Shown here in pieces: positions 39,732-42,068 of a DNA stretch of 64,000 nucleotides (position 1 is the first letter of the stretch; each line of letters starts with the position of its first letter). The stretch is from NCBI GenBank assembly GCA_046759185.1, contig JBHIBO010000009.1, positions 194-64,193 on the forward strand, written 5' to 3'. Source of the stretch: Thermoplasmata archaeon. GTDB lineage: Archaea > Thermoplasmatota > Thermoplasmata > RBG-16-68-12 > JAJISG01. Under the pieces are notes generated by a model. The model was given only the letters and a program-made list of their open reading frames with translations. It made no database searches and had not been told where the DNA came from. Both the position numbers and the translations under genes were made by a program.

Positions 39732-39908
39732 TCTCCAACCCGCAGGTGGTGTCGCCCTCGAATCAGTGGGCTCAGGCCCTATCCCAGCGAGGCGGGACCC
39801 TGCAAGAACTCAGTGTCCTTTAACTCCGACAGTTTCGATTCCGATGACCCCAGATCGGCCTTGGTCAGAGTCGCATCTCGGCTCAGCCGGAATCAAGAGA
39901 AGAGAAGT

Positions 39909-39933
39909 GAGGGAGACGACGGTGGCCTCCCTC
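39909..39933. terminator. 7-bp stem hairpin (GAGGGAG-N11-CTCCCTC) in a convergent intergenic region
   Basis: Perfect inverted repeat between the convergent OFOR beta subunit and the cupredoxin gene. There is no T-tract, so a terminator function is uncertain. Confidence 0.25.
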
Positions 39934-39951
39934 GTGGGACGTTTGCCACGC

Positions 39952-40494
39952 CTAGCTGACGACGAATCCACCCTCCAGTTTCATGAACTGGTGGCCCCAG
40001 CCGCAGAACTGGTTGCACTGGATGTCAAAGGTTCCGGCCGTATCTGCGAGGAAGGTTACGATCGTGGGGGAGGCCGAGTCCCCTACGGCGGGAATGTTCA
40101 GGTCGTACCCGCTGATCATGACGGAGTGGTCTTCCAAGCCTTGGTTCTCCGCCTCTTCGATGAGGTCGCGGAGTTCCAGGCCCGTCTTTCCGCCAAACTG
40201 GGTGTTGTTCTCCCACGCTGCAATCGTCCGATCCATGAACTGTCCATGAATCGCATGGCTCAGGGCCTCGGCACCCATGACCAAGAGGGTCACTTCCGTG
40301 CCTCGTGCTGCTTCGATGCGGGGCACTTCGGTGCCGTCCTCGTCGTAGATGACGAAGCCCCAGTGATGCGCGACGACAGTGAACGTCGCCTGGGGTGCCG
40401 GAGCCGGGACCGTCAGAGCGATGACGCCCCCTCCGATCGCGAGGCCGGCGACTAGTGCGACACCAATCCAGATCCAGAGCCTCCTATTCTCCAT
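39952..40494 (-). CDS. CuA-type cupredoxin, cytochrome c oxidase subunit II-like (single N-terminal TM)
   Basis: CuA ligand pattern H...CNQFCGWGHQFM (CxxxCxxxHxxM); a TCTATAAAG TATA-like box lies 24-32 nt upstream on its strand. Confidence 0.6.
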   Translation of the reverse strand: MENRRLWIWIGVALVAGLAIGGGVIALTVPAPAPQATFTVVAHHWGFVIYDEDGTEVPRIEAARGTEVTLLVMGAEALSHAIHGQFMDRTIAAWENNTQFGGKTGLELRDLIEEAENQGLEDHSVMISGYDLNIPAVGDSASPTIVTFLADTAGTFDIQCNQFCGWGHQFMKLEGGFVVS

Positions 40495-40517: not shown

Positions 40518-40526
40518 TCTATAAAG
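40518..40526. promoter_or_regulatory. TATA-like element TCTATAAAG in a divergent intergenic region
   Basis: AT-rich element 24-32 nt upstream of the minus-strand cupredoxin start (leaderless spacing) and about 50 nt upstream of the plus-strand wHTH gene. Confidence 0.4.
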
Positions 40527-40575
40527 AGAGAGGGCAATTCCCCGAGCTGAGTCCCAGAGTTGGGAATGAGCTCCC

Positions 40576-40938
40576 ATGCTTATCAAGGACCGCAGGCTCC
40601 AAGACGCGCTCTTACGAGCGCTTGCCGACGAGCAGAGCAGGCGGATTCTCGCGGCGACGAGCAACCGTCCCCGGTCTGCGGCGGACCTGATCCATGAGGA
40701 AGGACTCCCCAGTTCGTCGACCTACCGGCGGCTCCACGAACTGGAGGAGGAGGGCCTGCTGGCGGTGGCTCGGACCGTCCTGACGTCGGAGGGGAAGAAG
40801 TACCTGATGTACAAGGCGACCTTTCGTGAGGTGAGCTTGAAGTTCCAATCCGGAGAGGTGGTTGTCTCGGCCGTCCCCAACCTCGATGCGGTCCAGAAGG
40901 CGTTCCGCCTCTTCCACTCCTTCCAGGAGGAGCAATAG
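40576..40938 (+). CDS. ArsR/TrmB-like winged-HTH transcriptional regulator
   Basis: wHTH segment RRILAATSNRPRSAADLIHEEGLPSSSTYRRLHELEEEGLL; its stop overlaps the start of the first small membrane gene. Confidence 0.6.
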   Translation: MLIKDRRLQDALLRALADEQSRRILAATSNRPRSAADLIHEEGLPSSSTYRRLHELEEEGLLAVARTVLTSEGKKYLMYKATFREVSLKFQSGEVVVSAVPNLDAVQKAFRLFHSFQEEQ

Positions 40939-41222
40939 TGGTCGACCACCCCTACCTCGTGGCAGCCAAGATCACCGTCCTCCTCCTCGGTAGTGCCATC
41001 GCCCTCCTGTCGTACCTGGCGCATCGGCGGAACGGCGGACCTATCATGCTGGCCCTCTCCGCGGGGTTCGCCCTCATCGCGTTCGGTTCCTTCCTGGAGG
41101 GCCTTCTCTTCGAGGTCCTTCGGTGGGACCTCCCTACGGTCCATCTGGTCGAGTCCGTCTTCGTCCTCGCAGGACTCGTGACCTTGGCCATCGTGCTACG
41201 TCCGAGGGGCGTGAGAAGCTGA
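40938..41222 (+). CDS. Small two-TM membrane protein (paralogue A1)
   Basis: 94 aa with two hydrophobic helices separated by a basic loop (HRRNGGP); the segment AGFALIAFGSFLEGLLFEVLRWDL is shared with the fourth gene of the array. Confidence 0.5.
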   Translation: MVDHPYLVAAKITVLLLGSAIALLSYLAHRRNGGPIMLALSAGFALIAFGSFLEGLLFEVLRWDLPTVHLVESVFVLAGLVTLAIVLRPRGVRS

Positions 41223-41245
41223 CCATCTGGGCCTCCCTCAGTATT

Positions 41246-41485
41246 GTGGCCCTCATCGTGGCCGCCTTCCCACCCACGTACTTCGCGGTGAGACTGCGTA
41301 AGTCGAATCCCGCCTATGCGCGCCTAGCCGGTTTCCTCGCCCTCGCCCTCGCCGTCCACGTCATCTTCCACGTTGCCGACCTGTTCGTAGGAATCTCGGC
41401 ACTCGTCTTGGGCGTGGAGGCCCTCTCCGCCGCGTTTATCTTGGTTTTCGCGGCGCTATACTGGAAGCTTCGTGAGGAGGGATAG
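41246..41485 (+). CDS. Small two-TM membrane protein (paralogue B1); start uncertain (GTG)
   Basis: Hydrophobic helix, basic loop (RLRKSNP), second helix. The upstream part of the ORF-track ORF overlaps gene A1 in another frame and was trimmed. Confidence 0.4.
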   Translation: MALIVAAFPPTYFAVRLRKSNPAYARLAGFLALALAVHVIFHVADLFVGISALVLGVEALSAAFILVFAALYWKLREEG

Positions 41486-41514
41486 CCACCGTCCTCGAGT
41501 CCCCCCTCCAGATC

Positions 41515-41787
41515 GTGGTCCTGTCATTCCTAGGGCTCTCCTTGGCCATCTTCCTTGTTCGCATGCTCCGCGATCGGACCCCCCGTAGGGGAAAGGTCCT
41601 GGGCTTCGGGATTGGGTTCTCGACCTTCCTCTCTGCTTGGATTCTCGTTGAGCTCATCGGCACGCTGGCGCCTCTAGCCTGGGCGGAGATCAGCGACACC
41701 TTGCACTTCGGCGTCTTGCTCGCGCTCGCCGTCTGGCTGAACGTGCGTTGGGGATGGGCGTTTCTGGCAGCCCGGGAGGGGAGCTGA
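41515..41787 (+). CDS. Small two-TM membrane protein (paralogue B2)
   Basis: 90 aa with the same helix / basic loop (RMLRDRTPRRG) / helix layout. Confidence 0.45.
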   Translation: MVLSFLGLSLAIFLVRMLRDRTPRRGKVLGFGIGFSTFLSAWILVELIGTLAPLAWAEISDTLHFGVLLALAVWLNVRWGWAFLAAREGS

Positions 41788-42068
41788 CGGAGCACCCCAC
41801 CCTCGCCGTCTTTCGCCTCGCCATCGTCGCTGCGGGGGCGATCGTGACCCTCTGGGGGCTGCGGATGGTCGTTCAGGCCCGCGGTCACCGGGATACGTTT
41901 CTCTTTTTGACCGCAGGATTCGCCCTTCTGACCCTCGGGGCGGTGGTTGAGGGCGTCCTCTTCGAGTTCTTCGGATGGGACCTGACCCCGGCCCACACTG
42001 CCGAGGCACTGATAGCAGCGCTCGGATTCGCCCTCATCTTAATCTCCATCCAACGGAGCCAGATATGA
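41748..42068 (+). CDS. Small two-TM membrane protein (paralogue A2); start uncertain
   Basis: Clear similarity to A1 (HP.L...AGFAL..G..EG.LFE..WDL...H). Overlaps B2 by about 40 nt if the TTG at 41748 is used. Confidence 0.5.
   Translation: MGMGVSGSPGGELTEHPTLAVFRLAIVAAGAIVTLWGLRMVVQARGHRDTFLFLTAGFALLTLGAVVEGVLFEFFGWDLTPAHTAEALIAALGFALILISIQRSQI

Follow-up and report, generated by a model that had tools for sequence, protein, structure and literature searches.

A regulator-led operon of three-helix mini-proteins in Thermoplasmata, probably a membrane-linked switch for copper proteins

Genes and intergenic features at the locus

In a 64,000-nucleotide (nt) stretch of the genome of a Thermoplasmata archaeon (assembly GCA_046759185.1, contig JBHIBO010000009.1, positions 194 to 64,193; hereafter the window), a gene for an ArsR-like winged helix-turn-helix (wHTH) regulator is followed by four genes for very small membrane proteins, here named m1 to m4. 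Upstream of the regulator, and divergent from it, is a gene for a cupredoxin, which sits outside the interval described in the first-pass annotation of this DNA. We propose that the five-gene operon is probably an undescribed membrane-linked switch for copper proteins. The genes and the intergenic features are as follows (aa, amino acids).

39952 to 40494, minus strand: membrane-anchored stand-alone CuA-type cupredoxin, 180 aa (N-terminal hydrophobic anchor; alignment to the Thermus ba3 CuA domain)
40520 to 40525, no strand: shared TATA box, TATAAA (fixed spacing across lineages)
40537 to 40567, no strand: putative operator with three half-sites, ATTCCC at 40537-40542, TCCCAG at 40552-40557 and inverted TGGGAAT at 40561-40567
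40576 to 40938, plus strand: ArsR-like wHTH regulator, 120 aa, first gene of the operon (Pfam HTH_20 and HTH_IclR; profile search of the Protein Data Bank, PDB)
40938 to 41222, plus strand: m1, DUF7521 mini-protein with three transmembrane (TM) segments, 94 aa, GTG start (Pfam DUF7521, E = 5e-19; AlphaFold2)
41219 to 41485, plus strand: m2, mini-protein with three TM segments, family unrecognised, 88 aa when read from the conserved start (CTG) (conservation; ratio of nonsynonymous to synonymous substitution rates, dN/dS)
41488 to 41787, plus strand: m3, mini-protein with three TM segments, of another unrecognised family, 99 aa when read from the conserved start (ACC) (conservation; dN/dS)
41784 to 42068, plus strand: m4, mini-protein with three TM segments, the second of DUF7521, 94 aa when read from the conserved start (CTG) (Pfam DUF7521, E = 1.3e-11; paralogue of m1)

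The first-pass annotation had reported a wHTH gene with its stop overlapping the next start, and both points were borne out. The gene lies at 40576-40938. Its product passes the Pfam HTH_20 model marginally (28.3 bits, cut-off 27) and also matches HTH_IclR, and its TAG stop codon shares one base with the GTG start of m1. The PDB profile search returned the ArsR-family proteins 2p4w (E = 0.003), followed by HlyU, CadC and SmtB. The regulator is 69-88% identical over nine aligned Thermoplasmata loci and is homologous over 108 of its 120 residues to the regulators that partner DUF7521 proteins in Halobacteria (hhalign probability 98.4%). It scores well below the cut-offs of the NCBIfam metalloregulator model NF033788 (19.9 bits, cut-off 55) and of the SdpR model (13 bits, cut-off 100), and inspection of the alignment found neither of the usual metal-ligand sets, the Cys pair of helix alpha3 or the Asp/His/Glu site of helix alpha5. 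The protein contains no Cys, and its His54 and His114 are not kept in halobacterial or distant homologues; the lack of any family-wide conserved Cys or His argues that sensing is delegated to another component.

The four consecutive small hydrophobic open reading frames (ORFs) reported behind the regulator, ending at 42068, are all present. Each had been described as a two-TM protein; we find three hydrophobic segments in every one of them, and the AlphaFold2 model of m1 consists of helices 4-32, 35-60 and 65-86 (predicted local distance difference test score 84.6). The homology noticed between the first and the fourth ORF survives formal alignment, with a local score for m1 and m4 of 131 against 30.6 +/- 5.6 for 500 shuffles (z = 18) and an hhalign probability of 98.7-98.8%. 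These two proteins do belong to a described family, which had escaped recognition by eye: both pass the Pfam DUF7521 model (PF24365, cut-off 27 bits), m1 with 68.8 and m4 with 45.0 bits, and their orthologues in related loci are likewise marked PF24365. The resemblance seen between the second and the third ORF dissolved in the same kind of analysis (z = 0.4 relative to shuffles; hhalign at most 2% even with 32-36 sequences per profile), and m2 and m3 did not align to DUF7521 either (hhalign at most 12% with profiles of m1, m4 and both halobacterial paralogues, 28-40 sequences). No match to m2 was found in Pfam, NCBIfam, PADLOC or PHROGs, and none to m3 in Pfam or NCBIfam. From the A-B-B-A array of paralogues that had been proposed, the paralogy of the outer genes is thus retained, while the inner genes are related neither to each other nor to DUF7521; on these comparisons the array reads as A-B-C-A', with three distinct families. 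The m3 family is small: a search of 1.84 billion proteins gave just 25 representative clusters, and their members are all about 100 aa long.

The basic residues of all four mini-proteins sit in loop 1 and the C-terminal tail, which points to an N-out/C-in topology with these two parts in the cytoplasm. Given this predicted topology, the conserved polar residues would cluster near the outer leaflet of the membrane. In DUF7521 the conserved positions are an AYRR loop, predicted to be cytoplasmic and kept from Halobacteria to Thermoplasmata, the sequence EGxLFE in the last part of TM2 and W-D...HxxE(S) in the first part of TM3. In m2 they comprise a Glu in TM3 and an HxxxH motif in TM2 that is invariant, distant relatives included. 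In m3, the invariant residues are W51, E55 and A81, with H73, R87 and F47 close to invariant; the conserved set includes a Trp and a Glu within TM2 and a His where TM3 begins. None of the five operon proteins has a Cys, and the mini-proteins have no conserved Met; the Cys- and Met-containing TM motifs (MxxxM, CPC, CC) of Ctr, CopD, P1B-ATPase sites and MerT/MerF do not occur in m1-m4. Similarity to transporter families was not found for any of the four, nor was a match to the SdpI family. The fold neighbours of m1 are generic, namely the three-TM respiratory subunits NuoK, SdhD and MrpF/G, and none is significant. Compared with four relatives, dN/dS is 0.10-0.71 across the five genes (0.16-0.60 for m2 and 0.23-0.71 for m3); values below 1 throughout mark each gene as genuinely protein-coding in its own frame, with purifying selection acting on it.

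The product of the divergent gene aligns to the CuA domain of the Thermus ba3 haem-copper oxidase (subunit II) with all ligands present (H...CNQFCGWGHQFM), following the pattern His...Cys-x3-Cys-x3-His-x2-Met, and shares with subunit II the full H...CxxxCGxxHxxM pattern as well as an N-terminal membrane anchor. It differs from the oxidase subunit in standing alone, with no adjacent gene for subunit I, and in a weak overall similarity (E about 0.007). NCBIfam CoxB and NosZ models matched weakly, and the Pfam match to COX2, taken by itself, was below threshold. A further difference from the oxidase is that related loci have type-1 copper cupredoxins in the place of the CuA protein.

Conservation, copper proteins and the shared promoter

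The same array recurs in relatives, where the first-pass annotation had proposed to look for it. We assembled about 70 related loci (L numbers below) from protein look-ups, a DUF7521-seeded genome scan and a regulator-seeded metagenome scan, and read gene order with family hidden Markov models searched against six-frame translations of these loci. The strict order regulator-m1-m2-m3-m4 is found in about 40 Thermoplasmata loci in differing genomic contexts, and is also kept in distant low-GC relatives in which the identity of m3 has fallen to about 24%. Besides this five-gene form there is an architecture of a regulator and two DUF7521 genes, in Halobacteriales and three Thermoplasmata loci (L035, L036 and L043, which have the order regulator-m1-m4 and are missing m2 and m3), and a third form of regulator, m2 and m3 with no DUF7521 gene (L079, L080). 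By gene order, the mini-proteins come in two pairs, which occur singly or combined alongside a single family of regulators. The constant element is the pairing of the regulator with three-TM proteins, and the neighbouring genes vary.

Pairing of a DUF7521 gene with an HTH gene is already on record, as is the family itself. One example is a locus on Haloferax volcanii pHV3 (L074, 18141-18825), where Pfam assigns DUF7521 to a 102-aa membrane protein and HTH_20 to a 122-aa regulator; the pair is probably HVO_B0192/HVO_B0193. HVO_B0192 and HVO_B0193 are co-transcribed and respond strongly to cdrS repression and qarA deletion (PMC8406309; bioRxiv 10.1101/2025.11.10.687552). The wording of the latter source (bioRxiv 10.1101/2025.11.10.687552) can be taken as placing DUF7521 in the regulator; Pfam places it in the membrane protein. 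The window resembles this and other halobacterial loci in having a homologous HTH_20 regulator directly upstream, in Halobacteria often with a 4-nt overlap, and differs in having two DUF7521 genes split by two genes of other, unrecognised families. Among single regulator-DUF7521 pairs, several have unrelated neighbours: cytochrome bd, a major facilitator superfamily transporter, a pilin or, in H. volcanii, the pHV3 context. In the literature searched we found no description of the link to cupredoxins, the shared promoter and operator, the two additional mini-protein families or the modular pair architecture.

At least two metagenome-assembled genomes (MAGs) carry a second, diverged copy of the whole cassette. 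One is the window's own MAG, whose locus-tag prefix ACE5JE is borne by L003, and the other is FS_3_bin.22, the source of both L011 and L012. Behind the second cassette of the window's MAG come genes for a thioredoxin-like protein, a cation-efflux protein of the CDF family and a DUF7343 regulator.

The association with copper proteins was counted in the 42 related loci with at least 650 nt of upstream sequence, scored by copper-site motif. A divergent cupredoxin gene lies upstream of the regulator in 39 of them; once the set was de-replicated at 92% identity of the regulator, the count was 14 of 16 lineages. The three loci without one, L035, L036 and L043, are those that are also missing m2 and m3. 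The copper sites are CuA-like in 6 loci, of the form GDHSF...Cx10CHPDH in 25, classical type 1 (CxxHxPTM) in 7 and halocyanin-like in one. Pfam backs the assignment as cupredoxins, and the three main site types are related to each other at the fold level only. A type-1 copper cupredoxin is still found upstream in L079, which has the regulator with m2 and m3. On halobacterial plasmids with an HTH gene and two DUF7521 genes, a divergent gene of the plastocyanin/azurin family always adjoins (annotated as plastocyanin or azurin at L061, L064-66 and L068, and matched by Pfam Copper-bind at L062). At one locus a plastocyanin gene is one gene away, and one single-DUF7521 pair adjoins a multicopper oxidase gene.

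Several of these copper proteins are unusual in themselves. The commonest partner (L004, 2988-3551, minus strand, and 24 other loci, e.g. L009, L017, L023 and L038) has an unusual putative site, GDHSF...C-x10-C-H-P-D-H, with no Met ligand; it also has a conserved CxC near the N-terminus of the domain, and its matches to Pfam Cupredoxin_1 are below threshold. The partner cupredoxins of L013 (1489-2283, minus strand) and L014 (1535-2221, minus strand) contain long His/Asp/Glu-rich tracts such as HGHGHDHDDHGDDHHDDHHDDEHDDDHH. Tracts of this composition in the halobacterial cupredoxins suggest metal binding or buffering over pure electron transfer. In the distant low-GC relative L075 (1-1879, minus strand) the divergent cupredoxin gene is followed on the same strand by a gene for a 485-aa Fer4_5 protein, a polyferredoxin like NapH, NosR or CcoG, which hints at an electron-transfer or cupric-reductase partner.

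The regulator and cupredoxin genes of the window are separated by a short intergenic region that holds a single TATA box and the putative operator. The TATA box could be located in 28 of 29 distinct upstream sequences, where it precedes the regulator ATG by 56 nt (55 nt in one lineage); in the window and most lineages it lies 25-26 nt from the ATG of the cupredoxin gene on its other side. Its position suggests that it serves as a promoter in both directions. When the usual archaeal promoter spacing is applied to this box, the cupredoxin mRNA is predicted to be leaderless and transcription of the operon to start some 27 nt ahead of the regulator ATG.

The three half-sites, which lie between the TATA box and the regulator ATG, have a geometry that is fixed in all lineages and a sequence that co-varies with the recognition helix of the regulator. 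The half-site ATTCCCAG pairs with the recognition helix SSSAYRRLHE. TTCCAAG occupies all three half-sites in L011 and L012, which encode the only regulators in the set with R51 replaced (by H and L, respectively). ATTCCA/G half-sites occur with AYRLISQ in L079, and TTCTCATG half-sites with STIYRKIKD in L075. The motif is unique in the window. The first half-site appears to occupy the position of the B recognition element (BRE) of the opposite promoter, and the palindrome would cover the predicted start site of the operon. The conserved geometry and the covariation support the binding of the regulator to the three half-sites and, with it, co-control of its own operon and of the cupredoxin gene. 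In the equivalent intergenic region of the halobacterial loci, two TATA-like boxes flank a palindrome that is perfect but of another sequence, GATTTGCTG-N3-CAGCAAATC. A reading of the operator as an RNA hairpin found no support: its stability is no better than that of shuffled sequences (z = -0.19), and an Rfam search was empty.

A membrane-linked switch and its alternatives

Our preferred explanation is an autoregulated ArsR-like repressor operon wired to the cupredoxin gene, in which the mini-proteins act as membrane sensor or partner of the regulator; we give it a probability of roughly 40%. The four mini-proteins would form a hetero-oligomeric membrane complex composed of an outer pair, m1/m4, and an inner pair, m2/m3. 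On its half-sites, the regulator would repress both transcription units by covering the start-site region of the operon and the BRE-proximal flank of the cupredoxin promoter. The mini-proteins would expose a cluster of conserved His, Glu and Asp residues close to the outer leaflet, contributed by EGxLFE and HxxES of the DUF7521 pair, by HxxxH and a Glu of m2 and by a Glu and a His of m3, and they would respond to an extracytoplasmic cue, for which Cu(II) and redox state are candidates. Through their conserved cytoplasmic loops they may hold the regulator at the membrane or release it, by analogy with SdpR and SdpI.

In Bacillus subtilis, SdpR is an ArsR-family autorepressor that is sequestered by SdpI, a membrane protein encoded in the same operon. 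The present operon is similar in that the gene for an ArsR-like, putatively autorepressing regulator comes first and is followed by genes for polytopic membrane proteins, and dissimilar in that the two systems have no sequence relationship and that the partner here would be four three-TM proteins instead of one six-TM protein. Other parallels are PetR/PetP of cyanobacteria and systems of the BlaI/BlaR1-CopY type, in which a wHTH repressor and a membrane protease place plastocyanin under the control of copper. There too a wHTH regulator and a membrane partner share an operon and a cupredoxin gene is the target (a presumptive target in our case). The membrane partner in the window, unlike PetP and BlaR1, has neither a protease nor a sensor domain (no M56/M48 protease domain was found in the mini-proteins, which at 88-99 aa have three helices and no soluble domain), and the regulator is ArsR/HTH_20-like rather than BlaI-like.

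A role of the mini-proteins as sensor or partner is favoured because the association of the regulator with pairs of three-TM proteins is invariant while the targets vary, because the regulator has no conserved ligand site of its own, because the cytoplasmic loops are conserved and the His/Glu cluster is predicted to face outward, and because ligands of the Cu(I) type are missing from the mini-proteins. Several considerations weigh against it. The signal and the contact between regulator and membrane are proposed by inference alone, the transcription start sites are predicted from spacing only, and the covariation of recognition helix and half-site stems from few independent events. Five genes are a heavy apparatus for the control of one cupredoxin, and resistance operons of the ArsR type, whose output is the membrane proteins, just as typically begin with the regulator and continue with membrane genes. 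There are also several halobacterial regulator-DUF7521 pairs in whose vicinity no copper protein is encoded. In Haloferax mediterranei, a lone DUF7521 gene with no adjacent regulator (L067, 2501-2812, on pHME322) lies beside, and divergent from, pcy-nosZ. On the other side of this DUF7521 gene is a DUF2249 gene that is strongly induced under denitrification, in a paper that does not discuss the DUF7521 gene itself (PMC11218638).

The main rival takes the mini-proteins as the output of the operon: a hetero-oligomeric complex for metal handling or transport that would work with the cupredoxin in copper acquisition, delivery or detoxification, like MerT/MerP, CopC/CopD or Ctr, while the regulator itself would sense a cytoplasmic signal. 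In ArsR/SmtB operons such as arsRBC, cadCA and czrAB, the gene for an autoregulated regulator comes first and a palindromic operator lies over the promoter, and the window shares with them the wHTH fold class, the regulator-first layout with the resistance genes of the classic operons replaced by the mini-protein genes, and a putative palindromic operator that overlaps the promoter. The conserved membrane-embedded His, Glu and Asp residues, including the invariant HxxxH of m2, would suit a metal-handling complex, as would the His/Asp-rich tracts of the halobacterial partner cupredoxins, which are typical of metal-binding proteins. The neighbours on halobacterial plasmids (DUF302, SHOCT, DoxX and a permease), together with the CDF-family gene by the second cassette of the window's MAG, suggest metal or stress islands. 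Against this, the usual Cu(I) ligands are missing, m1-m4 having no Cys and no conserved Met, and the downstream genes are not known transporters and resemble no transporter family. The regulator differs from those of the ArsR/SmtB operons in that it contains no Cys and that neither an alpha3 nor an alpha5 metal site is conserved in it, and where contexts vary DUF7521 follows the regulator, not the cupredoxin. We regard this explanation as rather unlikely.

It is less plausible still that the mini-proteins serve the cupredoxin as a membrane dock or in electron transfer, perhaps as a small complex of the quinol-linked or anchoring kind, and that the regulator merely autoregulates a respiratory module. 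The partner is indeed a CuA or type-1 copper electron-transfer protein, the L075 cupredoxin gene is followed by a polyferredoxin gene, nosZ-pcy and cytochrome bd neighbour other DUF7521 loci, and the fold neighbours of m1 are respiratory subunits, albeit none significant. However, no haem- or quinone-binding signature was seen in the mini-proteins, just one His is conserved in the halobacterial DUF7521 pair, the mini-proteins belong to the transcription unit of the regulator and not to that of the cupredoxin, and weak or non-canonical start codons suggest low expression; we consider this account quite improbable. Least credible of all is the original view of four paralogous two-TM mini-proteins in an A-B-B-A tandem, forming a generic small transporter or a holin-like or immunity system. 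It correctly saw that m1 and m4 are paralogues and that all four proteins are alike in size, in their basic first loop and in overall hydrophobic pattern, and it fairly described an ArsR-like regulator and the conserved set of tiny membrane proteins behind it as a membrane system that is uncharacterised and has a regulator of its own. Each protein has three helices, however, m2 and m3 are unrelated to each other and to DUF7521 in pairwise and profile tests, and the tandem duplication that had been suspected is not present at the DNA level. The holin-like and immunity roles find no echo in PHROGs or PADLOC, with zero matches for the membrane proteins, or in the chromosomal, metabolic context, and the consistent neighbour is a cupredoxin gene, not phage or toxin genes. 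The divergent cupredoxin gene speaks for the control of a copper or redox protein rather than for a generic small transporter.

If the sensor or partner role of the mini-proteins is extended beyond the window, pairs of three-TM mini-proteins with a dedicated ArsR-like wHTH protein could represent an undescribed and widespread archaeal "split one-component system", a generalisation that we put forward as possible but tentative. Tiny hetero-oligomeric membrane sensors would gate a soluble repressor and thereby set the expression of copper and redox proteins outside the cytoplasm, among them cupredoxins, multicopper oxidase and the pcy-nosZ unit. To our knowledge, the regulation of archaeal extracytoplasmic copper proteins (halocyanins, sulfocyanin-like and CuA proteins, NosZ and its partners) is largely obscure. 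The module described here is a concrete and genetically tractable candidate, with a regulator, a putative operator and a target gene that can be read from the sequence and with close relatives on plasmids of the culturable haloarchaea Haloarcula, Halorubrum, Haloplanus, Salinigranum and Haloferax. It gives Pfam DUF7521 a first functional context and adds two mini-protein families whose genes are truncated or overlooked by gene callers.

Surroundings and start codons

The operon lies in a chromosomal and metabolic context. Both subunits of a 2-oxoacid:ferredoxin oxidoreductase are encoded upstream of the locus, and an FrhB-like protein is encoded downstream on the opposite strand. The m1 protein has an exact match on record, a hypothetical protein of a "Thermoplasmata archaeon" MAG. 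The G+C content of the window is about 64%, and long spurious antisense ORFs occur because it is so high; one of them, a 229-aa ORF at 39766-40455 on the plus strand, runs antisense to the cupredoxin gene. Naive clustering of neighbouring genes was swamped by Arg-rich antisense ORFs of this kind.

Neighbouring genes of the operon are linked by overlaps of 1-4 nt. In relatives, the stop codon of m1 and the start codon of m2 form an NTGA junction (ATGA in 21, GTGA in 7, TTGA in 2 and CTGA in 4), as do the stop of m3 and the start of m4 (ATGA in 23, GTGA in 5 and CTGA in 3), with a GTA codon instead of a start in one locus at each of the two junctions; the start of m3 is two bases past the stop of m2. 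At these conserved positions, where relatives have ATG, GTG or TTG, three of the four mini-protein genes of the window have a non-canonical codon: CTG at 41219 (m2), ACC at 41488 (m3) and CTG at 41784 (m4). The closest relatives, L001, L003 and L007, have CTG at m2 as well, and L003 and L007 have ACG at m3. Because canonical start codons are missing, mechanically called ORFs seem to overlap by 40-100 bases, database proteins that match m2 and m3 of the window are just 79 and 81 aa long, and the first-pass annotation met with uncertain starts. Other candidate starts are GTG 41123 and GTG 41246 for m2 and ATG 41754 for m4; the true start of m3 is likely GTG 41515, which gives a protein of 90 aa. 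In L012 there is an in-frame stop just upstream of the GTG, which shows that the long N-terminal extension seen in ORF2 of the window (120 aa) is not a conserved feature. The NTGA overlaps and the non-canonical starts suggest termination-reinitiation or near-cognate initiation, and the operon offers natural cases of translationally coupled genes with CTG or without a canonical start codon.

In one locus (L008, 716-1285) m2 and m3 occupy a single 189-aa frame with no stop between them. This fusion is probably due to a lost stop codon or to an assembly error in the 1.6-kb MAG contig; a true fusion would invert m3, because m2 and m3 are both predicted to be N-out/C-in.

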